From: an uncultured Verrucomicrobiae bacterium
GTDB taxonomy: Bacteria > Verrucomicrobiota > Verrucomicrobiia > Palsa-1439
Length of the DNA: 64,000 nt
Assembly (NCBI GenBank): GCA_963812605.1
Contig: CAWEWF010000014.1
Span: forward strand, 576,001-640,000
Direction of reading: 5' to 3'
The translations under genes and the position numbers were made by a program. The notes beneath the pieces are model-generated. The model ran no database searches, had not been told where the DNA came from, and saw only the letters and a program-made list of their open reading frames with translations. How positions within the stretch are numbered: the stretch's first letter is position 1; the number at the start of each line of letters is the position of its first letter. Positions 26,259-50,236 of this stretch are shown one piece after another.

Positions 26259-26624
<366 letters not shown>

Positions 26625-26633
26625 TGAACGGAC

Positions 26634-37042: not shown

Positions 37043-37627
37043 ATGAGAATAAAGCCACTACACGCGGTCTGCTTCTTGGCGGCTACACTTTTTACCACCG
37101 ACTTGGGCGCAACCGATGCAACGTTGCCCGATGAAACCGGACTGCGAATCGGACAACACGCGCCACCGTTCACACTCAACGACCAAAACGGAAAAGAAGT
37201 CTCGCTCGATGCGCTCCTCAAGAACGGCCCGGTCGCGCTGGTGTTCTTCCGCTCCGCCGACTGGTGCCTCGCTTGCGAATTCCAGTGGGTCAAACTCCAG
37301 GCGCACGTGAAGGAGATCGAAGCCTCAGGCGGGCAACTGGTCGGCATCAGCTATGATTCGGCCAAGACACTGAAATGCTTTGCCGACAAGCAGGCGATTG
37401 CGATCCCGATCTTGTCGGATACCGGCAGCAAAACCATTGATGCCTACCACGTGCGCGACACGGATCCCGCGCGGGCTCGCAATGGCGTCGCGCGCCACGT
37501 CATCTTTATCGTTGATCAGAAGGGCGTTGTTCGCTCCAAGCGGTTCGGGGTGATCTACGACGAACAATCCGGGGTGGATGCCCTGGTCAAAGCGTTGAAA
37601 GACGCGCAGAACGTGAATGGGGGGTAA
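37043..37627 (+). CDS. Secreted AhpC/TSA-type peroxiredoxin-like protein
   Basis: Signal peptide, APPFTLNDQNG, FFRSADWCLAC (CxxC), GISYD. Confidence 0.85.
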   Translation: MRIKPLHAVCFLAATLFTTDLGATDATLPDETGLRIGQHAPPFTLNDQNGKEVSLDALLKNGPVALVFFRSADWCLACEFQWVKLQAHVKEIEASGGQLVGISYDSAKTLKCFADKQAIAIPILSDTGSKTIDAYHVRDTDPARARNGVARHVIFIVDQKGVVRSKRFGVIYDEQSGVDALVKALKDAQNVNGG

Positions 37628-37631
37628 CACC

Positions 37632-40600
37632 ATGAAGGCGCGCATACAGTGTGTAGTGGTAGCGGTCGCAATTCTCTTCACCGGCCTCTTCGCTTCGACG
37701 GCTCATGCGGCTATGAACGTTGTCACGAATATCAGCTCCGACCCCACGATCTTTGAATGTTATCTGACTGCCACCAACCTGCCGGTAACCATCGTCACCA
37801 CCAACGGTTCCGCCCTCGTCACCAACATTGTCCAGGCGATGGTCTACAGGGACGAAAAACAACCGAGTTGGCCGCAGGGAGCCGGCATCCCGGTCCCGGT
37901 GATGAACCTGACGCCCGGGCAGATGGTCATTTGCCATTTCAAAAACACCTTGTCCGTGACCGAAGGTGCCAGCATCCACTGGCACGGCATCGAGCTGGAT
38001 AACGACAGCGATGGCACGAGCGTCACACAGGATAGCGTCAAGCAAGGTCAAACCTACACGTACCAATTCATTGCGCCCCGACCCGGTATCTTCTGGTTCC
38101 ACTCGCATATGGAACCCGGCAATACGACTTTCGCCGGGATGTATGGCGTCATTATTATCCCCAACGACGTTGAGGGCACCCTCATCTCCAACGGTTATCT
38201 CCCCTCGAATTCTGTCACCTACACCCTGGCCATGAGCGACATCGAATACGCCACCAACAACGCCTTCGCCCCAGGTTCCCCGATGGGCACTGTCGGCCGA
38301 CAGGGGATCAACGGCGGCTCCAACGTGTTCGAAACCATTAATCAGTGGGTCGAAGACTGCCATGACGCCGGAGGTGGTGGCGGTGCGAAAGCCCTCTGCC
38401 AGACAGCGTCGAAGCCCGGTGCTGTCGTGCTGGTGAACGGCGAACATCCTCTGGCCATAGCGGGAGGCCAAACGCCAATGTTTACCGTCCCGGCGAACAA
38501 AAAGATCCGGTTGCGGCTCCTGAACGAGGCCCTTGTCCGGCATTTCCATCTGAAGTTGCTGGATGCCAGCGGCAACCAAATCGACATGGTCCGCATTGGC
38601 GGACAGGGTGGCCTGCTGGATTACGCGCGCCTGGAGGGAGGCACCAACGAAGACTGGGATACGCAATATGCGGAGGGCGAAATTGTTATCGGCTCGGGAG
38701 ATCGTGCCAACGTCCTCACCTATGCATCCGGCACCAACGGAGCCATCCTGCGGCTCGTTGGCAACCCTCTGCCCGATCCTCCTTTCTCTCTTGACGCGGC
38801 CACACTGGGTAGCAGCGCCAACATCCCCAGCAACTATCCGGTCGCATTCTTCAAGATCAGTGGGACGGCAAGTGATCCGGAGCCCGAGGATGGCGATCCG
38901 ATACTGGCCGCTGCCGGTGAATTCGTCGAGGAACTTGGCCCCGCCACCAATTCGCTCATCGATCCAGCTTCCTTGGGGCCCAATTTCCCGGGCACCACGA
39001 ACCCCGTCATTAGCCTGACCCAGGCGAACGTGCAGCCCTCGATTGACAACATCCAGCCCGTCAAGCTCGACGGGAACATGGGCAACGGAGATTTCACGTC
39101 GATACCGCATACCAACAGCACGCGCTACGCGCACGTGGGCGACCTGCTCCAGCTCTCCGTCAGCAACGAGACAACCCCGGCTCATCCGTTCCACCTCCAC
39201 GGGTTCTCGCTCCAACCGATAATGATCGTCGACAACAGCACTTCGAACACGCTCTACACCTACGATTACAATGAATTCGTCGACACAATCAACGTCTATG
39301 GCGGGCAAACCCTTGTCTTCCGCGTTCGCTTGGATGATCGCCCGAAGTTCTGTGACGAATCTCCGCTCTGGCCAAATCCAAACGCAGGTCCGACCCTCCT
39401 GCCCTGTAACGATTCGACCTGCGGCGGGGCCGTCGGGAGATGGTTATTCCACTGCCACATCTTCCCCCACGCCGGTGAAGGCATGATCGGCGAGTTGACC
39501 GTCCTGCAGAATGCGACGGAAACCAATGTCTTCAAATTCGTCAAGCACCCCGACCTCTCGTACTCGGGCGTGGACGTGTTGGCCACCTATGGCACCGGCT
39601 CGCCAGTCATCGCGGACAATTTCCTGTGCACCAGCAACGGCCTCATCACCGGTATCAGCGTCTGGGGTTCATGGCTTGACGACGTGGTGGGCAGCAATGT
39701 CACCTTCCAGTTGACTTTGTCGAACGACGGAGGCAATCAACCCGGCACGCAATTGTGGCAGGAATTCTTCACACCGGGCACGTACAGCAACACCTTCGTG
39801 ACGTCCGTCTCCCCCGACGAGACGTTCTTCGATCCGAGTCAGCCGGCCGTCTTCGCCACCGACACTCAGGTGTACCGGTACGACTTCCCCATCCCGGACT
39901 GCGACGCCTTTTATCAGGATTCTGGCACCATCTATTGGCTCAGCGTGACGGCATTTACCACCAACGGGTTTTTCGGGTGGAAGACCTGCATTACCAACGA
40001 CTACTTTAACACCGACGCGACGTGGAACAGCACGACCAATTTCCCGGACTGGAGCCCCCTGTCTTATCCGTCCTCCAATCCATACTCCGGGCTTAGCATG
40101 GACCAATCCTTTGAGATCGCCACCGCGGTGTCCACGAATTGTCCGCCGCCCGTGGCCAGCTTCTACGCTTTTCCAACCTCTGGTACCGAACCGCTGACGG
40201 TGACCTTCAACGATACTTCGACGGGCAATGTCACGAATTGGTTTTGGGATTTCGGCGATGGCAACACTGCCAACATCACTACCAATACAATAATGCACAC
40301 GTACGCTGCGGGGAATTATTCGGTGACCCTGACGGTTATCAGCCGCTGTGGCACCAACACAATCACCCAAACGAATGCCATCAACGTCGGGAGTTGTATA
40401 CCCACGGCAAGCTTCTACGGTAGTCCGACCACTGGTACGGAACCTCTGTTGGTGAACTTCTTCAGCACCTCCTCGGGCTCGATTACCAACTGGTTCTGGA
40501 ATTTCGGAGACGGCACTACCACCAACACCTCATCCCCCAGCGTAAGCCACACGTATGCCGCCGGCACTAACACCGTGACCCTGATCGTCTCCGGCCCCTG

Positions 40601-41330
40601 CGGCGACGCCACGAACACCCTGACAAATTACATTATCGTCATAAGCTGCATCCCCCAGGCGAACTTCTACGCCAGTCCAACCAGTGGCCTGGCACCGCTG
40701 TTGGTGTACTTCTACGACACCTCGACCGGCACGATCACCAACTGGTTCTGGAATTTCGGTGACGGCACTACCACCAACGTCATGACCAGCTACGTGTATT
40801 ACACCTATACCAACGCCGGCACCTACTCAGTCACGCTGGTGGCCAGCGGCCCCTGCGGTACCAGCACGACCAACGCGCCGAACTACATCACGGTGCTGAC
40901 GACGGTGCAAAACTGGCAGATCCAATACTTCGGCTCCACCAATAACCCGAATGGCGCACCCGGACTTGACTTGTTCGGAACCGGTATGAGCAATTCCAAC
41001 AAGTTCCTGGCGGGATTCAGTCCCACCGACCCGTCGGCGTACCTGCACATCATCGCCATCGTGAAGACGAATAATAACGTCCAGGTGATCTACCTCGGGG
41101 CCAACGGCGACTACACCTGGTATCCGGGCGTCGCGTCGCGCACCAACGTGCTGGAGTTCACCAGAGGCACGGTCAATGGCAGCTACTCATCGAACAACTT
41201 CACGAGCACCGGCCAGACGAACATTCTCAGCGGCGGCGACGGCCTCGGGATCGTGACCAACATGATCGATGTTGGCGGCGCGACCAACAAACCGTCGCGG
41301 TACTACCGGGTCCGCGTGCTGGTGCCATGA
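37632..41330 (+). CDS. Large secreted multicopper oxidase with three PKD domains and a C-terminal YRVRVLVP domain
   Basis: All four Cu motifs (IHWHG, WFHSH, HPFHLHG, HCHIFPHAGEGM); three NWFWD/NFGDG PKD repeats. Confidence 0.93.
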   Translation: MKARIQCVVVAVAILFTGLFASTAHAAMNVVTNISSDPTIFECYLTATNLPVTIVTTNGSALVTNIVQAMVYRDEKQPSWPQGAGIPVPVMNLTPGQMVICHFKNTLSVTEGASIHWHGIELDNDSDGTSVTQDSVKQGQTYTYQFIAPRPGIFWFHSHMEPGNTTFAGMYGVIIIPNDVEGTLISNGYLPSNSVTYTLAMSDIEYATNNAFAPGSPMGTVGRQGINGGSNVFETINQWVEDCHDAGGGGGAKALCQTASKPGAVVLVNGEHPLAIAGGQTPMFTVPANKKIRLRLLNEALVRHFHLKLLDASGNQIDMVRIGGQGGLLDYARLEGGTNEDWDTQYAEGEIVIGSGDRANVLTYASGTNGAILRLVGNPLPDPPFSLDAATLGSSANIPSNYPVAFFKISGTASDPEPEDGDPILAAAGEFVEELGPATNSLIDPASLGPNFPGTTNPVISLTQANVQPSIDNIQPVKLDGNMGNGDFTSIPHTNSTRYAHVGDLLQLSVSNETTPAHPFHLHGFSLQPIMIVDNSTSNTLYTYDYNEFVDTINVYGGQTLVFRVRLDDRPKFCDESPLWPNPNAGPTLLPCNDSTCGGAVGRWLFHCHIFPHAGEGMIGELTVLQNATETNVFKFVKHPDLSYSGVDVLATYGTGSPVIADNFLCTSNGLITGISVWGSWLDDVVGSNVTFQLTLSNDGGNQPGTQLWQEFFTPGTYSNTFVTSVSPDETFFDPSQPAVFATDTQVYRYDFPIPDCDAFYQDSGTIYWLSVTAFTTNGFFGWKTCITNDYFNTDATWNSTTNFPDWSPLSYPSSNPYSGLSMDQSFEIATAVSTNCPPPVASFYAFPTSGTEPLTVTFNDTSTGNVTNWFWDFGDGNTANITTNTIMHTYAAGNYSVTLTVISRCGTNTITQTNAINVGSCIPTASFYGSPTTGTEPLLVNFFSTSSGSITNWFWNFGDGTTTNTSSPSVSHTYAAGTNTVTLIVSGPCGDATNTLTNYIIVISCIPQANFYASPTSGLAPLLVYFYDTSTGTITNWFWNFGDGTTTNVMTSYVYYTYTNAGTYSVTLVASGPCGTSTTNAPNYITVLTTVQNWQIQYFGSTNNPNGAPGLDLFGTGMSNSNKFLAGFSPTDPSAYLHIIAIVKTNNNVQVIYLGANGDYTWYPGVASRTNVLEFTRGTVNGSYSSNNFTSTGQTNILSGGDGLGIVTNMIDVGGATNKPSRYYRVRVLVP

Positions 41331-41436
41331 ACATGATTTGGAGGCGTGCGGCTATCGGAAGGGCCACGCTTTACAATTTACGCGTCAGTCCGTGAACAAG
41401 CTCAGAGTTCGCAAAAATACGTTTGTACAATCTGTG

Positions 41437-42738
41437 TTAACCGAGGTCCGTCCAACTCACCAGGTCCGCCAAATTCGCCCGGCCGTCATGGTGCCAGGAC
41501 AAGGGCGGGCGTTGCATCTGGCCGATGGGGCAGACGCGATGGATGCCCATCCGGGCGAGGTCGCCCGCAAATCCCGCCGCCCGCTCGTTCATCGGCGCGA
41601 CGCCCACCGTCGAGACATTGGCGGCGATCTTCTGGATGGCATCGAGGACACGCTTATAGCCGTCCGTGGGTTTGACGAAAATGACGCGGTTGAGGCAGGA
41701 GGGGATGAAGGACGGGCTGTCATCGTAGATCACTGTCCAGTCATTGCCAGTGGAACTGCTCCAAACGATGAACCGTTTGTCCGAGGCAGCACGAAATTCA
41801 TAACCTGAGCGGAATTTGGCGACTTGCGCTGCTTCTTCGGTGGAAAGTTGCCCGCGCGGGACGCGCGCTTGATACACAGCCATCGCCTCGGCCAGCGCCG
41901 CGGCAAACTTTCGCGGACCAAGCTGCCCGCGTTCTTCCACATAATACACATGCGGCGAGAGGCAACCCAACTGGTCGTACACCGATGCGTCAAACGCCGC
42001 CGCTTGCGCCAATTGCGGCAGGTTCTCCTCGGTCATCGCTTCCTTCCCGACCACCGCGAAGCTGAGCTTGTGGCCGTAACCGAGAAACCGCGCCTGCGCC
42101 GGCGCGAGTTGTCGCAACGCGGAAATCGTATGGTCGTCGCCGTACGCGATCACCCCGTCGGCATCTTCCAGCGCCGTCTGCGTCAGCGCCAACTCGCCGC
42201 GCGACCAATCGGTCGATGCCGCGCAATCGGCCAGTTCCGCGTCCACCTCGCGCACCGACTCGATGAAAAGGGAAGGGAACACCGGGTCGCGCGGCGAGAC
42301 TTTCACCAGGTTGGCTGTGCGCAGCAGTAGGCCGCAGCAGATGCTGACGATCCCCGGCATCGGGACGTTGCCCGCCAAAAAATGCACCAGCAAACGCGGC
42401 GCCATCGCCCGCGATTGCACCCGCCCGCGCAGGCAGAACTCGTCGAGCACGCGGCGGTTCCCCAATTCGCGGTCCAGCAGTTCGCCGAGCGACTCGTAGT
42501 GGATTGCCCCAAAGGTGAGATCGATGGCTTCCTGCACCATCGCTTCGGAAAATCCCATGTGTCGCGGGCCGTATTCGACGGCCTGCCGTCGCCACCGGCT
42601 CTTGGGGTCGAGCCAGTTCTTCGCCGTCTGCGTCAAAACGGCGATGACCGCGTCCGTGGTGCGATGCTGCTGCACCCGCTCGCGCGCTTCACCGGTCCGG
42701 CTGACCGCCTCCCGAATCGATTCAACAGTTGCGCTCAT
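41437..42738 (-). CDS. LuxC-like acyl-thioester/acyl-CoA reductase
   Basis: HFLAGNVP, AYGDD, GYGHKLSF, YDQLGCLSPH (catalytic Cys), RVCPIGQMQ..WHHDG. Confidence 0.88.
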   Translation of the reverse strand: MSATVESIREAVSRTGEARERVQQHRTTDAVIAVLTQTAKNWLDPKSRWRRQAVEYGPRHMGFSEAMVQEAIDLTFGAIHYESLGELLDRELGNRRVLDEFCLRGRVQSRAMAPRLLVHFLAGNVPMPGIVSICCGLLLRTANLVKVSPRDPVFPSLFIESVREVDAELADCAASTDWSRGELALTQTALEDADGVIAYGDDHTISALRQLAPAQARFLGYGHKLSFAVVGKEAMTEENLPQLAQAAAFDASVYDQLGCLSPHVYYVEERGQLGPRKFAAALAEAMAVYQARVPRGQLSTEEAAQVAKFRSGYEFRAASDKRFIVWSSSTGNDWTVIYDDSPSFIPSCLNRVIFVKPTDGYKRVLDAIQKIAANVSTVGVAPMNERAAGFAGDLARMGIHRVCPIGQMQRPPLSWHHDGRANLADLVSWTDLG

Positions 42739-42760
42739 TCGAATTTGTTTTGTTTCGCTT

Positions 42761-42865
42761 TGTAGGGCAAGCGCTCCGCTTGCCGCCGTTTCGATTCCTC
42801 TTGTAGGGCACGCAACCCGCGTGCCTTCTGCATATCAACGGCAACCGACGCGGTTGCCCTACAAC
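42761..42865. repeat. GTAG REP cluster between the luxE-like and luxC-like genes
   Basis: TGTAGGGCAAGCGCTCCGCTTGCC, TGTAGGGCACGCAACCCGCGTGCC and an inverted unit whose GTAG contains the luxE-like stop codon. Confidence 0.85.
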
Positions 42866-44061
42866 ATTCCCAAGCTCTCCGCATTCAACGAGCACCCGCG
42901 CACTTCCGCGCCCGCCGCTCGCCCCAATACTTCAAATTCCGCCAGGCCCACGTCGCTCATCCGGGCAATCCCCAAATCCTCCGTCTGCACACACAGCATA
43001 CTCCACAGGTTCGCCAGGTCAAAGATTCGAATGAGGCCGCGTTCATGATCAGCAGCCTCCCTGCCAGTGTTCGGGTCTATGACCAACACGCGCGCCCATG
43101 GCGGAACCGCCTTGCCGTCCGTCCGCTTGCCAACCCGCAGCGTCGCATCATAAAACTGCGTGCTCAATTCCGTCATGCCGTATTCATTGACGATGTGCGA
43201 CGTCGGTATCCCCAGAACACGCTCGAAGTGCCCGTAAAGCTCCGCCTTCGACAATTCGCGAGATCGTCCCTTGAACCCGCCCGTTTCCATGGCGCGACTG
43301 CCTTCTGCCATCTCGAATTTCAAATTCCGCCGTTCCAGATGATCAAGCAAATGGACAAAAGCAAACGCCGTCCCCAATAGGAACACAGGCTGGTGCGCCC
43401 ATTGCGCCTCACACAAGTCGTGCACCAGTTTCTCTAGAAGCAACTGACCGCCCTCAACATAATAAGCGCTGTCATCGCCGCCAAACTCTTCCATCACCAC
43501 GCCCATCATGTGCGACGACGACGAATGCGGCGCCTCCTCCGGTGACGGCATCAGTATCATCATCGGCAAAGTCATTGTAGGGCAAGCGCTCCGCTTGCCG
43601 CTAACCGTAGTGGGGTGGGCGTCTCGCCCGCCATCATCTCCTGTTGAACAGGCATCCCGCCTGTTTCCCTCCTCCTGCCCACCTAGCAAATGCGCCGCGA
43701 AGTTTGGCTTGATCGCCGCATGGTAAAGTTCGAGCGTGGCCAAAAAATGTTTCCCCGACTGCTCGCGCGTCGTCCCACTCGTATGAAACTCCGCCACGGC
43801 CTGCTCAACCAGGAAACACGTCAGCGCAAAATCCTTGAACGCACCCGTCGGCGTCGCCGGGATCTCCTTCCAGTACGTCACCGACTGCGGTGTCTGCTTC
43901 CGACGGTCGCAATAAGCCCGATACACCGCGCACCGCTCATACTGAAACGCAAAAACCTCCCGCGCCAACCGATCAAACTCCTCATCCGTGGTCGGCTGTC
44001 CAACCCCGCGAGAGATCAGCGCGAGCACCCGTTGTTGGAGGTCTGAAGCAACTTTATCCAT
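42859..44061 (-). CDS. LuxE-like acyl-protein synthetase (ANL adenylating enzyme) with an in-frame REP insertion
   Basis: FHTSGTT, METGGFKGR, NEYGMTELSTQFY, QTEDLG, LGRAAGAEVRGCS (C-terminal Cys). Confidence 0.88.
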   Translation of the reverse strand: MDKVASDLQQRVLALISRGVGQPTTDEEFDRLAREVFAFQYERCAVYRAYCDRRKQTPQSVTYWKEIPATPTGAFKDFALTCFLVEQAVAEFHTSGTTREQSGKHFLATLELYHAAIKPNFAAHLLGGQEEGNRRDACSTGDDGGRDAHPTTVSGKRSACPTMTLPMMILMPSPEEAPHSSSSHMMGVVMEEFGGDDSAYYVEGGQLLLEKLVHDLCEAQWAHQPVFLLGTAFAFVHLLDHLERRNLKFEMAEGSRAMETGGFKGRSRELSKAELYGHFERVLGIPTSHIVNEYGMTELSTQFYDATLRVGKRTDGKAVPPWARVLVIDPNTGREAADHERGLIRIFDLANLWSMLCVQTEDLGIARMSDVGLAEFEVLGRAAGAEVRGCSLNAESLGML

Positions 44062-45292
44062 GGGAAACGAAATCACCCAGTGCAGCCACGCAATAATCCA
44101 ATTGCCGTTTCGTGATCACCAGCGGGGGCGTGAGGCCAACGACTTCATTGCGGCTGCCTTCGGGCAGGGCGAGAACGCCACGCTGCAAAAACTTCTCAAC
44201 GACGGGAACCGCGTTGTCCACCTCGAGTCCGAGCATCAATCCCTGGCCACGCACCTTGCCGGTGCGGGCCAACCGCGTTGCGAGCCATTTCCCCAGTTCA
44301 CGACTGCGGGCTGCCAACTTGAGCCGCTTCATCTCTGCAATTGACGCCAAGGCCGCCGCGCAACCGAGCGGATTACCAAGAAATGTGCTGGTATGAATGG
44401 CCTCGCCTTGCGATTCCGGCCAGCTATCCATGACTTTCGCGCGACCGATGCACGCCGAAATCGGAAAGCCGCCCGCCATCGCCTTTCCCACACAAACGAT
44501 GTCTGGTACCACCCCCGAATGTTCGCAAGCGAACCAACGTCCCGTCCGACAAAACCCCGTGTAGATCTCGTCGAGAATTAATAGCAACCCATGTTCATCG
44601 CAAAACCGCCGCAACTTCGGGAGAAAATCATCCGGCGGAACAACAATCCCACCGCGTCCCTGGATCGGCTCGGCGATCACTGCGCCGAAATCTTGAATAT
44701 TCGCCACATCCGGCAAACGGCCAAACGGAACATGCGCGGTGAAGTGGCCCAGCTGCCCCGTGAAATGTGAACGGAAGTCCGCGCGCCACGTCGTGTCGAG
44801 CGCACCGTAGGTGAGTCCGTGATACGCGCCGTCGAACGCAATGACGCCGGGCCGGCGGGTGTGGATCACTGCTGTTTTGAGCGCGATTTCCACCGCCTCC
44901 GCGCCGGAATTCGCGAAGACAACGCGCGCTTCCGATTTGTCCCACCTCCCAAACGTCAGCGCCACCAATTCCCGCGCCAGCTTCAATTTTAATTCGTTCG
45001 GATGCACGTCGCCCATCGCATGCAACAGCTTTCCCGCTTGCGCCTGGATGGCCGCTACCACGCGCGGGTTGGCATGACCGACACTTGCCACGCCAAACGC
45101 CGCCGTCAGATCGAGATAGCGGTTGCCATCGACATCCCACACATTGGCGCCCGCCGCGCGCTCCCAAAAGATCGGCCAGTGGTCGGACACGAAAGTAATG
45201 TTGCGGGATTCATACTGACGGAGTTGGTTGGCGAGGGCGCGGGACTTCAAGCCAGGGACGCGGGTCTTGAGAAGTGGCAGCAGATCTTTCAC
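44054..45292 (-). CDS. Class III PLP aminotransferase
   Basis: WDVDGNRYLD, NSGAEAVE, AYHG, EPIQGRGG, DEIYTGFCRTG, VGKAMAGG, HTSTFLGNP. Confidence 0.93.
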   Translation of the reverse strand: MKDLLPLLKTRVPGLKSRALANQLRQYESRNITFVSDHWPIFWERAAGANVWDVDGNRYLDLTAAFGVASVGHANPRVVAAIQAQAGKLLHAMGDVHPNELKLKLARELVALTFGRWDKSEARVVFANSGAEAVEIALKTAVIHTRRPGVIAFDGAYHGLTYGALDTTWRADFRSHFTGQLGHFTAHVPFGRLPDVANIQDFGAVIAEPIQGRGGIVVPPDDFLPKLRRFCDEHGLLLILDEIYTGFCRTGRWFACEHSGVVPDIVCVGKAMAGGFPISACIGRAKVMDSWPESQGEAIHTSTFLGNPLGCAAALASIAEMKRLKLAARSRELGKWLATRLARTGKVRGQGLMLGLEVDNAVPVVEKFLQRGVLALPEGSRNEVVGLTPPLVITKRQLDYCVAALGDFVSHG

Positions 45293-45307
45293 AACAACGG
45301 CTTCATC

Positions 45308-45550
45308 CTAGCCGTGTCGGACGAACTTGTGAAACGTCTTGCCGGCTTCCTGGTCGACAAGCAGCACAAGCTGATTGGCTTTCATGGCTTCGACCAGTTC
45401 ATCAACGCTCAGGTTCTCGTAATCGACCTTGTCGCCATCGAAGAGAACGGCGAGATCACCGTCGGTATTGCGACGGCGCGCGGCCTGGCCGCTGCGTTCA
45501 CCGATCCAACCACGAATTTGCGCGGACTTGATGATGATGCGTAGGGACAT
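45308..45550 (-). CDS. Small hypothetical protein
   Basis: 80-aa ORF packed between queE and the aminotransferase; IRGWIGERSGQAARR..FHKFV. Confidence 0.7.
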   Translation of the reverse strand: MSLRIIIKSAQIRGWIGERSGQAARRRNTDGDLAVLFDGDKVDYENLSVDELVEAMKANQLVLLVDQEAGKTFHKFVRHG

Positions 45551-45555
45551 GGTGC

Positions 45556-46203
45556 TTACACTCCTCGGGTTTCCGGCCCCCAAATCTGTTTGTGCCACTG
45601 GGTCTGCATGCGGACGGGCAGTCTATCCGCCAGAATCCATTCGGCAAGCGTTTTGAGCGTCAGCTCGCCCCAAACGGGCGAAAATAAAACGGTACAGACG
45701 TTTGCCAACTGATACTCGCCCATCATCTGCTTCGCCCAATCGTAATCCTGGCGGTCGGCAAGAACGAACTTCACCTCATCCTTTTTGTCGAGATGTCGAA
45801 TGTTGTCGTAGAGGTTCTTCCCGACCTCGCCGCTGCCGGGGCATTTCAAGTCCATGATCTTCACCACGCGCGGGTCAACGCGCGACACATCCACCGAACC
45901 GCTCGTCTCCAGCAACACCCTTTTGCCCAGATCACAAAGCCGCGCCATCAAGGGGAAAACGTTTGGCTGCAACAAAGGCTCGCCACCCGTGATCTCAACC
46001 AGCGGGCAGTTGTATTCCAGCACTTTCACGATCACGTCACCGAGTTTCATCGGCGCGCCCTCGTGGAACGAATACGTTGTATCACACCACGTGCAGCGCA
46101 GATTGCACGCGGTCAGCCGTACAAACACGCACGGCAACCCCGCAAACGAGGACTCGCCCTGGATGCTGTGAAAAATCTCGTTGATGACAAGCGTATCGGC
46201 CAC
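45556..46203 (-). CDS. queE: 7-carboxy-7-deazaguanine synthase (radical SAM)
   Basis: EIFHSIQGE, FVRLTACNLRCTWCDT (CX3CX2C), ITGGEPLLQ, LETSG, QWHKQIW. Confidence 0.92.
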   Translation of the reverse strand: MADTLVINEIFHSIQGESSFAGLPCVFVRLTACNLRCTWCDTTYSFHEGAPMKLGDVIVKVLEYNCPLVEITGGEPLLQPNVFPLMARLCDLGKRVLLETSGSVDVSRVDPRVVKIMDLKCPGSGEVGKNLYDNIRHLDKKDEVKFVLADRQDYDWAKQMMGEYQLANVCTVLFSPVWGELTLKTLAEWILADRLPVRMQTQWHKQIWGPETRGV

Positions 46204-46209
46204 GGCAAG

Positions 46210-46238
46210 AGATTAACAAACCCCCGCTGCCGCGTCAA
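46210..46238 (-). promoter_or_regulatory. Sigma70-like promoter of the queE operon
   Basis: TTGACG-17 nt-TAATCT, ending 6 nt before GTG 46203. Confidence 0.55.
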
Positions 46239-46261
46239 TTTGCGGCACCAACCAAAGCTAT

Positions 46262-47263
46262 TTATTCCGCTCCGACCTTGGCCGGCTGCCCTGTTCGCGC
46301 CGATTCATAGATCGCCTCCATTAACAGGGCCTGCCGCAAACCCCAAATAGCAGGCGCCGGATCTTCCGCTTTCCCGAGCACGCAATCGATGAACCACCGC
46401 TGCAACGTCGGCACCGTGGGCACCGCGGGGTACCGTATCAACTTCCCATCCGCGCCCCATTGTTGAAGTCGTCCGCCATGAACGCCCGTCAGAAACTCGC
46501 CGCCCGTGGTCGATATCCGCACTCCTTCCTCCCAACCAACGACCGAGTCACCATTGATCAGGGCTGTCCCGAGCGCACCGTTCTCGTAGCGAATGCTTAC
46601 GCTGCCGGTGATATCGACCGGCGCGCCGCGATTATCCGTCCAGGCGAACACTTCGCGTGGCCGAAGATCCGTCAGGTAAAGCAGCGCATTGAACACGTGC
46701 GCACCACTGTCGTACGCCTGCCCGCCGCCCGCCGCTTCCGGATCCTGTCGCCACGTTCCTTTCGTCGCCCGCTTCCACGCTTGCGCCACGAATGCATCCG
46801 CGGCGATCACTTCTCCAATCGCGCCGCTCTTGAGCAGAGCATGGATGTATTGAAACTCCGGTGAAAACGTCCCCGGAAACGCGACGCTCAACACGCGTTT
46901 GGCTTTCGCCGCGTGCTTGATGAGTTGGCGAGCATGCTCGACGTTCACCACCATCGGCTTTTCCACGAATACGTGACAGCCGACATCCAAGGCGGCGCTG
47001 ACCTGTTCGAAGTGCTGGTTGTGCGGCGTGACGATGAGCACGGCGTCCAATTCCACCTCGGCCAGCATATTTTTATAATCAGCAAAGGTTGGCGGCTTCT
47101 TCTTAATGGGATCGAAGACTTCCCGCTGGTAGCGATCGAGATTGTCTTTGTGCGTGTCGCAAAGCGCGACAACTTCCGCTTCCGGCACCTGGGTCGTATA
47201 GACCCGTCCATGATACCGGCTCATGCTGCCGCAGCCAATGATCCCCAACCGTACTTTATTCAT
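46262..47263 (-). CDS. Gfo/Idh/MocA oxidoreductase
   Basis: GIIGCG, HVFVEKPM, GGGQAYDSGAH. Confidence 0.92.
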   Translation of the reverse strand: MNKVRLGIIGCGSMSRYHGRVYTTQVPEAEVVALCDTHKDNLDRYQREVFDPIKKKPPTFADYKNMLAEVELDAVLIVTPHNQHFEQVSAALDVGCHVFVEKPMVVNVEHARQLIKHAAKAKRVLSVAFPGTFSPEFQYIHALLKSGAIGEVIAADAFVAQAWKRATKGTWRQDPEAAGGGQAYDSGAHVFNALLYLTDLRPREVFAWTDNRGAPVDITGSVSIRYENGALGTALINGDSVVGWEEGVRISTTGGEFLTGVHGGRLQQWGADGKLIRYPAVPTVPTLQRWFIDCVLGKAEDPAPAIWGLRQALLMEAIYESARTGQPAKVGAE

Positions 47264-47323
47264 AGTGCCAAAAGCCTAGCAAATGGGCTTGCCCCCGGCA
47301 AACTATCTGGCAACGATACGGAT

Positions 47324-48280
47324 GTGACGAAATTGACGCCAGAACAGTTCGCCCTGGTCGCGCGTGAAGTCGAGCTCATGATTGGGGAAGGGGAGCGCGA
47401 CGAAGTATGGCGCGTGCTCAAAATGTTCGCGGACGGGCACTTTCAACACACGTTGCAGGATTTTCCCCCAACAATTCAGTCCGAGTTTCGCAACCTGGGC
47501 CCATCTCGGCGGAAAGATTACAACATCCTTGCCGCCGCCATTCGCGCCCTGGAGAAGGACGTGTTTGATGTTCGCGGAATCGGCCGGTTGAACTTCGAGA
47601 GGAGGGAATACGAACTCTTGAAAATCGTCAGCCGTCCGGCGCCTTCGCCGTATGCCGTGCAGGTGCCGATCTGTCTTGTCGCCGGCGTGCATGGCGATGA
47701 AGCGGATGGCATTCTCGCCGCGCTGGAGTTGGCGCGCCGCTTTGCGCGGAGCCCGCAGCTCATCTCCAACTATTCGCTGACGATCTATCCCTGCGTTAAC
47801 CCTGTCGGTTACGAACGCATGACGCGGGAAAACGGCGCTGGCAAAGACTTGAACCGTGAATTCTTTCGCAATAGCACAGAAGAAGAAGTGATCGTCATGG
47901 AGCGCGAGTTACGGGCGCACGAGTTCATCGGATTCATCAGCGGGCACAGCGACTACGAGTCGTTTGGCGTTTATGCCTATGCCACCGGCGCGGTCCTGAG
48001 TGAACGGTTGGCGAAACCCGCGCTCTTTCAGGCCAGCATCATCATCCCGATCAATACCGACGCCGTGATCGACGGCCATCCCGCGCAGAACGGAATTATC
48101 AACCAGAAGTTTCCCGGCTCGCTTGGCCCGCTGTCGAAAGGTGCAAGCGAACCGTTCGATATCACTGTCGAAACCCCGAATCTTTTCGCACTCAGCAAGC
48201 GCATCCAAGCCCAGGCAATCGCTTTCGAAACCATTCTCCACGAATACCGCGCTGTGGCGGCTGAAGCCGTAAACTTGTAA
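47324..48280 (+). CDS. M14 family carboxypeptidase/deacylase with an extra N-terminal segment
   Basis: AGVHGDE, PCVNPVG, RENGAGKDLNREF, HSD, ETP. Confidence 0.85.
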   Translation: MTKLTPEQFALVAREVELMIGEGERDEVWRVLKMFADGHFQHTLQDFPPTIQSEFRNLGPSRRKDYNILAAAIRALEKDVFDVRGIGRLNFERREYELLKIVSRPAPSPYAVQVPICLVAGVHGDEADGILAALELARRFARSPQLISNYSLTIYPCVNPVGYERMTRENGAGKDLNREFFRNSTEEEVIVMERELRAHEFIGFISGHSDYESFGVYAYATGAVLSERLAKPALFQASIIIPINTDAVIDGHPAQNGIINQKFPGSLGPLSKGASEPFDITVETPNLFALSKRIQAQAIAFETILHEYRAVAAEAVNL

Positions 48281-48315
48281 GCGGGGCCGATCTGGACTAC
48301 AAAGGACGCTTGCAA

Positions 48316-49005
48316 ATGAAGAAATCAACTGCGCTGGTGCTATGCACTGCCCTCGCCACCGTAGCGGCCCAGGCTCAGCCGCCGAAGTCCGATCGCGACT
48401 TCGACGGGCTCAAGGGCAAAGTCCATCAGGTGAGCCATGGCAATCTCATGCCGTCCATGCAGGATAAATTACACTCCGGCGAATCGGAGACCTACGACGA
48501 GCAGGGCAATCTGGTAGCGACCGTCGTCGTGGGCGCCGATGCCTACCTCCGTCACGCCTACGCGCACTTCGATGTCCAAACCGTGTTTGAGTATTGGGGC
48601 GAGAAGCCATCCCCTCCCGGCAGCGAGGAGGATTACTCCAGGCTGTCTGCCAAATTTATCTACAAGTACGACGGCAATGGCAACCGCATCGAGAAATCCG
48701 ACTTCAACAACAAAGGCTCGCTAACGGCGACGCATAAGTATCTGTACGACCCCAAGGGCCGGCGCATCTCCGAGTCTACGGAAGTCGGCAAGGAAGTGCG
48801 TGAATTGGTGAAATTCACCTATGATGCCGCAGGCAACATCATCGGTCGGGTCAATGGCACGCAAACCACCGCTTATCGGTATGCCCAATTTGATTCCGCG
48901 GGAAACTGGACCAAGCGGATCGTCATCGGTCTGGGGATCAAAGAAGGGGAAACCCAACCCGCGCTAGTGGAATCCCTCGAAGAACGGTCGATCACCTATT
49001 ACTGA
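48316..49005 (+). CDS. Secreted YD-repeat-containing protein
   Basis: Signal peptide, GLKGKV, YDEQGN, YDGNGN, YDPKGR, YDAAGN, FDSAGNW, ITYY end. Confidence 0.8.
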   Translation: MKKSTALVLCTALATVAAQAQPPKSDRDFDGLKGKVHQVSHGNLMPSMQDKLHSGESETYDEQGNLVATVVVGADAYLRHAYAHFDVQTVFEYWGEKPSPPGSEEDYSRLSAKFIYKYDGNGNRIEKSDFNNKGSLTATHKYLYDPKGRRISESTEVGKEVRELVKFTYDAAGNIIGRVNGTQTTAYRYAQFDSAGNWTKRIVIGLGIKEGETQPALVESLEERSITYY

Positions 49006-49042
49006 CCGCGCCATGGCCTCGGACACGTGCATTGCAGTTCAC

Positions 49043-49071
49043 TTGACATGCGACGTCTGGACGTCTAACAT
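49043..49071 (+). promoter_or_regulatory. MTase promoter with a palindromic GACGTC-TG-GACGTC spacer
   Basis: TTGACA-17 nt-TAACAT, ending 7 nt before ATG 49079. Confidence 0.65.
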
Positions 49072-49078
49072 GCATGCC

Positions 49079-50236
49079 ATGAGCGAGACCGAAACAAGGT
49101 ATGCACCGGGGCGGGTCCGCGATGCCATTCTTCAAGTATTATCACTTAGCTCAAAACCTCTTTCGATCAAACAGATCCAAGAACGCGTGTCTCAGGTCAT
49201 TGGGCCGACGCCTACGTCGTCCGTCCGTTCCTATCTCCGTCTGAATACTCCGAAGAGTTTCGTGAGACAGGATTGGGGCGTTTATAGCGTGCGCCGCGGA
49301 GGAACACTTGGAGTTCAACGAAGTCTGTCGCACAAAGAAGCCTGGCAACCCCCTTTGCACATCGGAAGCGCTCAACTAGTTCACGCCGACTGTTTTGATT
49401 GGCTGGAGCAACAAGCGGATAAAAGTTTTCAAGCTGTCCTCACAGATCCCCCCTATGGACTGCATGAATACACCGCCGAGCAGCAATCAAAACTTCGGAG
49501 TGGGAAAGGAGGGGTCTGGCGAATTCCGCCATCGTTTGATGGTCACATGAGATCTCCGTTGCCCCGTTTCACGACTCTGACAGCGCAACAGCTTGAAGAA
49601 TTGCGGAGCTTTTTCTTTGTATGGACACGCCTGCTACTGCCGAAACTGGTGCCGGGCGCGCATGTCGTTGTCGCCTCCAATCCGCTTCTGTCCTACATCG
49701 TGGCTGGAGCATTGGCGGATGCGGGCCTTGAACGCCGCGGTGAGATTATCAGACTGGTCATGACCATGCGCGGTGGGGACCGCCCCAAAGCTGCGCATGA
49801 GGAGTTTCGTGATGTGAGCGTGATGCCGCGTTCCATGTGGGAACCGTGGCTGGTATACCGAAAACCGCTGGAAGGCCGGGCCCAGGACAACTTGAGGAAA
49901 TGGAAAACAGGCGGACTTCGGCGTCCGGCTTCTGATAAGCCGTTCGGCGATGTCATTCCTTCATCGCCGACGCGAAAGAATGAGCGCTTGCTGGCCCCTC
50001 ATCCCAGCCTCAAGCCACAGGCATTCCTCCGTCAAATTGTCCGTGCACTCCTGCCTTTGGGAGAGGGGACCGTGTTGGATCCCTTTGCGGGCGCGGGATC
50101 CACCTTGGCAGCGGCCGAGGCGATTGGCTACGCCAGTATTGGGATTGAAAAGGACAGGCACTATTTCGACATCGCGGGCCGAGCCATACCGAAGCTCGCG
50201 CGGTTTCATCCTAACGGAAGTCTTTCGAGCCGGTAG
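49079..50236 (+). CDS. Beta-class N4-C/N6-A DNA methyltransferase with an N-terminal wHTH-like domain
   Basis: TDPPY precedes HPSLKP and LDPFAGAGST; N-terminal VRDAILQVL..LSIKQIQERV..SSVRSYL. Confidence 0.92.
   Translation: MSETETRYAPGRVRDAILQVLSLSSKPLSIKQIQERVSQVIGPTPTSSVRSYLRLNTPKSFVRQDWGVYSVRRGGTLGVQRSLSHKEAWQPPLHIGSAQLVHADCFDWLEQQADKSFQAVLTDPPYGLHEYTAEQQSKLRSGKGGVWRIPPSFDGHMRSPLPRFTTLTAQQLEELRSFFFVWTRLLLPKLVPGAHVVVASNPLLSYIVAGALADAGLERRGEIIRLVMTMRGGDRPKAAHEEFRDVSVMPRSMWEPWLVYRKPLEGRAQDNLRKWKTGGLRRPASDKPFGDVIPSSPTRKNERLLAPHPSLKPQAFLRQIVRALLPLGEGTVLDPFAGAGSTLAAAEAIGYASIGIEKDRHYFDIAGRAIPKLARFHPNGSLSSR

Follow-up and report, generated by a model that had tools for sequence, protein, structure and literature searches.

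The subject of this analysis is a cluster of five genes at positions 41437-46238 of a 64,000-nucleotide stretch of contig CAWEWF010000014.1, from an uncultured Verrucomicrobiae bacterium; the whole stretch is referred to as the window, and all coordinates follow its numbering. The cluster lies entirely on the minus strand and consists of queE, which encodes 7-carboxy-7-deazaguanine (CDG) synthase, a short open reading frame (ORF), and the genes for a class-III (omega) aminotransferase, a LuxE-like synthetase, and a LuxC-like reductase. The last three proteins, referred to as the trio, most likely take the place of QueC and QueF in the synthesis of the queuosine precursor preQ1, as a preliminary description of the window had suggested. 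The tight packing of the five genes, with the gaps given in that description, is borne out by the ORF coordinates and the family matches, and the features are listed below, starting 5' of queE.

46261-46204, minus strand: gap of 58 nucleotides 5' of queE, carrying a candidate promoter-like element (from the sequence).
46203-45556, minus strand: queE, CDG synthase (TIGR04349, 306.1 bits against a cut-off of 300).
45550-45308, minus strand: ORF of 80 amino acids, a lineage-specific accessory (no Pfam or NCBIfam family).
45292-44054, minus strand: class-III (omega) aminotransferase (PF00202, 340 bits).
44076 (GTG, ORF list) or 44061 (ATG, likely) to 42859, minus strand: LuxE-like adenylating acyl-protein synthetase (PF04443, 61.5 bits).
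42858-42739, minus strand: spacer of 120 nucleotides with three hairpins resembling repetitive extragenic palindromes (REP-like; sequence inspection).
42738-41437, minus strand: LuxC-like acyl-thioester reductase (PF05893, 286 bits).

queE is separated by 5 nucleotides from the 80-residue ORF, which is in turn separated by 15 nucleotides from the aminotransferase gene, and 120 nucleotides lie between the LuxE-like and LuxC-like genes. The claimed overlap of 8 nucleotides between the aminotransferase and LuxE-like genes holds if the latter begins at the ATG at 44061, which is the start used by relatives; the ORF list instead has the GTG at 44076. From this spacing, the five genes may be co-transcribed, as the preliminary description had stated. 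The promoter-like element described 5' of queE (TTGACG-17-TAATCT, 46238-46210) was not confirmed: it matches the consensus at 8 of 12 positions and is absent from the listing of the promoter scan.

The window belongs to a Verrucomicrobiia metagenome-assembled genome (MAG) of 4.17 Mb in 15 contigs, which is 90% complete. The queE of the cluster, in which the radical-SAM motif CNLRCTWC can be read from the DNA, is the only copy in this genome, where the next-best match reaches 31.6 bits. The genome also encodes FolE, QueD (122 bits), Tgt (514 bits), QueA (395 bits), and QueG (383 bits). QueH was not found in it, its best QueC match has a score of 46.9 bits against a cut-off of 150.3, and its sole QueF match is FolE itself, at 22.9 bits. 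The queuosine pathway of this genome has one gap, from CDG to preQ1. The absence of queC and queF, previously noted for the window, therefore holds genome-wide at curated cut-offs, with the caveat of a divergent QueC-like gene on another contig, described below; because the genome is 90% complete, this absence falls short of proof.

The distribution of the LuxE-like protein was compared with that of QueF in an even selection of 151 Verrucomicrobiae genomes (the class sample), where LuxE-like proteins were searched with a profile built from alignment A1. The LuxE-like protein occurs without QueF in 85 genomes and QueF without the LuxE-like protein in 56; no genome has both, and 10 have neither. 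No LuxE-like genome of the sample has a QueF match other than FolE. QueC above its cut-off was found in 57 genomes, which are the 56 QueF genomes and one more, G020. Tgt is present in 146 of the 151, including 83 of the 85 LuxE-like genomes. With a limit of E ≤ 1e-10, QueE was matched in 83 of the 85 genomes with the LuxE-like protein, in 55 of the 56 with QueF, and in only one of the 10 with neither, a genome that is 52% complete. These counts indicate that the CDG-making enzyme is kept wherever either downstream system exists and is missing where neither does. Families f10, f13, f29, and f43 and genus g69 each hold genomes of both the LuxE-like and the QueF type, and the pattern therefore does not reflect one old split. 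Several complete genomes of family f9, of 2.2-2.8 Mb, have the trio and lack QueC/QueF. The Fisher p-value computed on this division overstates the case, since related genomes are not independent.

Two types of QueE were seen in the class sample. Genomes with the LuxE-like protein have one that resembles TIGR04349 (E about 1e-65 to 1e-93), and most of the QueC/QueF genomes have another (E about 1e-17 to 1e-34). Five exceptions, G040, G079, G095, G146, and G162, have the TIGR04349-like QueE together with QueC/QueF.

A similar division was observed in a second sample of 121 Myxococcota genomes, the phylum of locus L067, for which the counts were cross-tallied from match lists by eye. The LuxE-like protein was found in 96 genomes and QueF in 21; 95 have the LuxE-like protein without QueF, 20 have QueF only, one has both, and five have neither, with Tgt present in 120. 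The checks proposed in the preliminary description that can be made by computation all had the predicted outcome; the LuxE-like gene and queF are almost perfectly complementary, both being present in 0 of 151 Verrucomicrobiae and 1 of 121 Myxococcota genomes. Relatives of the LuxE-like protein were matched in at least 584 stretches of a collection with one genome per species, and the trio is likewise present in MAGs with labels such as Planctomycetota, Spirochaetota, Gemmatimonadetes, and Thermodesulfobacteriota. Five genomes with different taxon labels (Myxococcota, Planctomycetia, Spirochaetales, Gemmatimonadetes, and Gammaproteobacteria) gave QueF matches that are all FolE-like.

Gene linkage was assessed in the best 80 of these at least 584 LuxE-like loci, which come from several phyla. 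The LuxC-like gene adjoins the LuxE-like gene in 74 of the 80 loci, and the aminotransferase gene stands just upstream in 52; two further aminotransferase matches are distant paralogs. queD lies directly downstream of the LuxC-like gene in 16 loci, and queE is nearby in 11. Tgt, QueA, and FolE of the window's genome, used as tblastn queries, had no match in the 80 loci. In the class sample, queE lies within 10 kb of the LuxE-like gene in 24 of the 85 genomes, from five families, as judged by comparing coordinates by eye.

The arrangement of these genes varies. The genus of the window has the order queE, small ORF, aminotransferase, LuxE-like, LuxC-like; locus L105 has queE, aminotransferase, a gap, LuxE-like, LuxC-like, queD; and L106 has LuxE-like, a major facilitator superfamily (MFS) gene, LuxC-like, queD, queE. 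In Myxococcota, Planctomycetia, and others, the order is aminotransferase, LuxE-like, LuxC-like. In three of five genomes examined (G019, G023, and G024), queE and the aminotransferase gene are neighbours far from the LuxE/LuxC pair. Because these neighbourhoods overlap across lineages, the five genes are tied together, and the linkage to queE and queD recurs in several families and phyla.

The LuxE-like protein matches PF04443 with 61.5 bits against a threshold of 24.9, where the match covers residues 214-398, the C-terminal half only. Against the NCBIfam LuxE equivalog NF052244, it reaches 67 bits, and the cut-off is 550. Judged from these scores, the protein appears to be a member of the superfamily and not a LuxE ortholog. 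Its sole PDB match is LuxE in 7xc6 (chain E), the solved LuxC-LuxE fatty acid reductase complex. The KGCSL motif of that chain aligns with a C-terminal RGCSL, and Cys395 is aligned with the cysteine of KGCSL, which is the acylation site of LuxE. At least 97% of 80 sequences retain Cys395 and the motifs SGT and ETGGxKG, and alignment A1 shows no variation in SGTT, ETGGxKG, or EYGMxEL. The protein also has a glycine-rich, charged insertion of about 36 amino acids (43570-43680, residues ~133-168), which is rare in relatives; a similar one is found in G003.

The LuxC-like protein gave 286 bits for PF05893, whose threshold is 21, and 129.7 bits for the LuxC equivalog NF052251, whose cut-off is 750. 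Its sole PDB match is LuxC in the same complex (7xc6, chain A), where YDQQACFS aligns with YDQLGCLS; Cys259 of the GCLS motif, which is aligned with the cysteine of ACFS, is conserved in 97% or more of 68 sequences. LuxD (PF02273) was not found in the window's genome, which extends to the whole genome the earlier remark that the window has no luxD.

The aminotransferase passed the cut-off of none of the 25 best NCBIfam models listed, the best score being 329.2 bits against 552; argD (TIGR00707, 304.7 bits), LysJ (249.3), and PigE (256.1) were all below their curated cut-offs. Since the scores fall far short of the equivalog cut-offs for LuxC, for LuxE, and for every aminotransferase listed, the members of the trio appear to be new subfamilies and not orthologs of named enzymes. 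The solved structures nearest to the aminotransferase are GabT and the acetylornithine/acetyl-lysine and putrescine aminotransferases, all of which interconvert terminal aldehydes and primary amines. At least 97% of 52 sequences retain the pyridoxal phosphate (PLP) lysine, Lys270, which aligns with the lysine of GabT, and the PLP-binding Asp241. In a quick maximum-likelihood tree, a single clade of 55 rows unites the aminotransferases linked to queE with those linked to LuxE, with a support of 99 in the Shimodaira-Hasegawa-like approximate likelihood-ratio test (SH-aLRT), and the seven other class-III paralogs of the window's genome branch outside it.

Four singleton proteins appeared as candidate fusions of QueE with a class-III aminotransferase; they were rejected as true fusions, since frame errors or gene calling probably joined two adjacent genes. 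P0065 has junk between its two parts, and P0064 has an internal methionine at the aminotransferase start. Fusion of QueE to QueC, by comparison, is common.

From these results, the following route is proposed. QueD and QueE would produce CDG. The LuxE-like protein would adenylate the carboxylate of CDG with ATP and load it as a thioester on the C-terminal Cys395, after which the LuxC-like protein would take the acyl group on Cys259 and reduce it with NAD(P)H to 7-formyl-7-deazaguanine. The aminotransferase would convert this aldehyde to preQ1, the aminomethyl base, which Tgt would then put into tRNA, where QueA and QueG would complete queuosine; the nitrile preQ0 would be bypassed. What the comparison shows is the content and linkage of the genes, the conservation of the catalytic residues, and the phyletic pattern; from these, we infer CDG as the substrate, the aldehyde as the intermediate, and likewise the product, cofactors, and amino donor.

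To the reading that the LuxE-like protein, the LuxC-like protein, and the class-III aminotransferase replace QueC/QueF and convert CDG to preQ1 without a nitrile, we assign a probability of about 0.72 on the comparative evidence. The route, which had been drawn from the window, is supported by three independent kinds of genomic evidence, namely the gap in the pathway, the complementary distribution in two phyla, and the recurrent linkage in varied arrangements, and the conserved catalytic residues agree with it. A LuxE/LuxC-type pair with a dedicated aminotransferase would then probably constitute a third, previously unrecognised route to preQ1 without a nitrile. Most of the remaining probability falls to variants inside deazaguanine metabolism.

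Several observations weigh against this reading. In the Myxococcota loci examined, the trio adjoins no queuosine gene, and the lower-scoring LuxE-like matches in this phylum may include paralogs. QueE was matched at E ≤ 1e-10 in 114 of the 121 Myxococcota genomes, and many of these are weak N-terminal matches to a seemingly divergent QueE type; one such ORF matches four QueE models, each below its cut-off. G184 and G208 have QueE without either downstream system, and G240 is the genome with both the LuxE-like protein and QueF, the latter weak at 63.7 bits. Elsewhere, G026 and G027 have no aminotransferase gene beside queE or the LuxE-like gene. A preQ1 riboswitch was not found at the cluster, an Rfam search of 41000-47600 giving no match of any kind at E ≤ 1. 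Furthermore, most of the genomes are MAGs, the window's own being 90% complete, and relatives are not independent samples.

Two kinds of QueC matches also belong among these points. The first is the divergent QueC-like gene of the window's family, located at G000:C13:36940-37595 in the window's genome and at L116:5619-6281 in a relative, G009. The full-length protein is 220 amino acids long and contains an SGGLDS loop as well as a cluster of cysteines at its C-terminal end, and its gene adjoins those of a beta-carbonic anhydrase and a UbiD-family decarboxylase. The gene, which scores 52-95 bits and is thus below the cut-off, is present in 15 of the 17 sampled genomes of the family besides the window's, and its role is unexplained. 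In the window's genome, it spans three reading frames, which may be a long-read error because a relative has similar breaks in its LuxC-like gene. The second is QueC of G020 (L118:6304-6942), the only genome of the class sample that has the LuxE-like protein and QueC above the cut-off; it has no QueF. The neighbours of this gene encode a DUF6884 protein, a SIR2-like/AAA protein, and a Vsr endonuclease. From this defence-island-like context, the gene was judged probably not to be a housekeeping queC.

Among the other explanations, the one that survives best is that the trio acts in 7-deazaguanine metabolism on another substrate or toward another product, such as the product of QueD, a nucleotide- or tRNA-bound form, or a different 7-substituted base for Tgt. 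That the trio is linked to queD and queE and is complementary to QueF indicates involvement in the pathway and does not specify the exact substrate. In four of the six split loci examined, an MFS transporter gene stands between the LuxE-like and LuxC-like genes, which hints at traffic of a free base, and this MFS protein may carry a queuosine precursor; one MFS protein is reported to transport preQ1 (PMC11130926). On the other hand, no free carboxylate other than CDG occurs downstream of QueE. QueA requires the aminomethyl group of preQ1, and the window's genome encodes this enzyme along with QueG. The TIGR04349-like QueE also occurs beside QueC/QueF in the five genomes named above, so the QueE associated with the trio most likely makes ordinary CDG. 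Taken together, another substrate or product is rather improbable.

A second explanation is that preQ1 or preQ0 comes from salvage, or from divergent QueC/QueF proteins missed by the models, the QueC-like gene of the window's family being one example, and that the trio is unneeded for queuosine. The retention of this full-length protein in most of the family, together with the incompleteness of the MAGs, favours it. However, the gene is spread over three frames in the window's genome, and among the other 67 LuxE-like genomes of the class sample, which are outside the window's family, a QueC match at E ≤ 1e-12 was found only in G020 and G069; QueF beyond FolE was found in none of the LuxE-like genomes. 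Salvage would also leave unexplained both the retention of QueD and QueE and the absence of QueE from nine of the 10 genomes with neither system. We regard this explanation as improbable to a greater degree than the first. The least probable is the alternative raised in the preliminary description itself, that the trio serves the synthesis of an unrelated amine, fatty or aryl, and is linked to queE by chance: the LuxC and LuxE of luminous bacteria do reduce fatty acids and the Myxococcota trio is not beside queuosine genes, but chance cannot account for the near-complete exclusion with QueF in two phyla, for the recurrent queE-aminotransferase and LuxC-queD neighbourhoods in varied arrangements, or for the single aminotransferase clade, and LuxD was not found and the scores are far under the LuxC and LuxE equivalog cut-offs.

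The proposed conversion of CDG to preQ1 by the trio can be compared with known systems. It resembles LuxC-LuxE (7xc6) in that the two genes are adjacent and in that both cysteines, the acyl-cysteine at the C terminus of LuxE and the catalytic one of LuxC, are conserved along with the adenylation motifs; the sequence from carboxylate through acyl-AMP and thioester to aldehyde is proposed to be the same. The trio differs in its partners, which are the aminotransferase, queE, and queD instead of luxA, luxB, and luxD, and in its proposed substrate, a deazapurine carboxylate and not a fatty acid. With QueC, which converts CDG to preQ0, and QueF, which converts preQ0 to preQ1, it would share the starting and end compounds and the place between QueE and Tgt. 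The two systems have a complementary phyletic pattern and consist of unrelated protein families. In contrast to QueC and QueF, the trio would form no nitrile or amide intermediate, and transamination from an amino donor, not ammonia, would supply the nitrogen. Its expected cost is one ATP and one NAD(P)H, compared with two ATP and two NADPH for QueC/QueF.

The conversion of a carboxylate to a semialdehyde and then to an amine with a class-III aminotransferase is also known from ArgB/ArgC/ArgD, LysZ/LysY/LysJ, and PigE (prodigiosin). These modules follow the same chemical logic as that proposed for the trio, whose substrate would be a heteroaromatic acid. The arginine and lysine pathways activate the carboxylate by phosphorylation, whereas the trio would do so by adenylation and a thioester. 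In biocatalysis, a carboxylic acid reductase is combined with an omega-transaminase, where an aromatic acid is reduced to the aldehyde with ATP and NADPH and then transaminated. In that cascade, the reductase combines several domains and a phosphopantetheine arm in one enzyme, whereas two proteins with cysteine thioesters would be used here.

The remaining parts of the cluster appear to be lineage-specific. The 80-residue ORF has no Pfam or NCBIfam match, nor a match at 0.9 or above in a protein atlas; by tblastn, it was found in nine of the 80 loci, all of them Verrucomicrobia-labelled close relatives, with 58-87% identity. The 120-nucleotide spacer consists of three short hairpins with a GCCCTACAA tail. 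Since the GCCCTACAA motif occurs 139 times in the genome against ~33 expected, the REP-like label first given to these hairpins is reasonable. The insertion of this spacer is specific to the window's genome; in relatives, the LuxE-like and LuxC-like genes are a few bases apart, as in locus L033. Upstream of queE, a GFO/IDH/MocA oxidoreductase (46262-47263) is matched in eight of the 80 loci, all but two of which are the closest relatives, and it is not counted as a member of the system. In some Verrucomicrobia-type loci, an MFS gene, a YkuD-domain gene, or both stand between the LuxE-like and LuxC-like genes, often followed by queD. The MFS or YkuD genes of such split loci are as follows.

L057:11753-13030, L101:6564-7871, L106:11183-12451, and L113:2692-3903.
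L057:11109-11819, L073:7066-7836, and L079:11780-13054.

Three further features were recorded on the plus strand of the window. RNase P RNA of bacterial class A (26259-26628, 229 bits) is its only Rfam family. A protein of 1237 amino acids with multicopper oxidase domains, DUF7901, and three PKD domains is encoded at 37617-41330, and a short RHS/YD-repeat ORF followed by an N6/N4 DNA methylase lies at 48310-50236.

A full-text search, which excluded subscription journals and supplements, found no literature linking LuxC/LuxE, acyl-protein synthetase, or carboxylic acid reductase to preQ1 or deazaguanine synthesis, and a prior description is possible. In the available part of a 2026 review (PMC13740343), 7-formyl-7-deazaguanine is mentioned only as a hydrolysis by-product of QueF mutants. 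The paper with the MFS protein (PMC11130926) describes queuosine synthesis as requiring QueD, QueE, QueC, and QueF to reach preQ1.

If the proposed conversion of CDG to preQ1 by the trio is true, it would be the commoner route to preQ1 both among the Verrucomicrobiae sampled (85 of 151) and among the Myxococcota sampled (up to 96 of 121), and a large share of environmental bacteria would use other enzymes for the last two steps to preQ1. At present, pathway reconstruction from genomes treats these bacteria as salvagers or takes their pathway to be broken. It would also be the first role in nucleobase metabolism for LuxC/LuxE-type reductases, would make 7-formyl-7-deazaguanine a natural intermediate, and would represent a cascade from a heteroaromatic acid to an amine with a possible use in biocatalysis. 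Carriers of the trio would neither make nor leak preQ0, which would bear on the exchange of precursors and on preQ0-dependent DNA modification.

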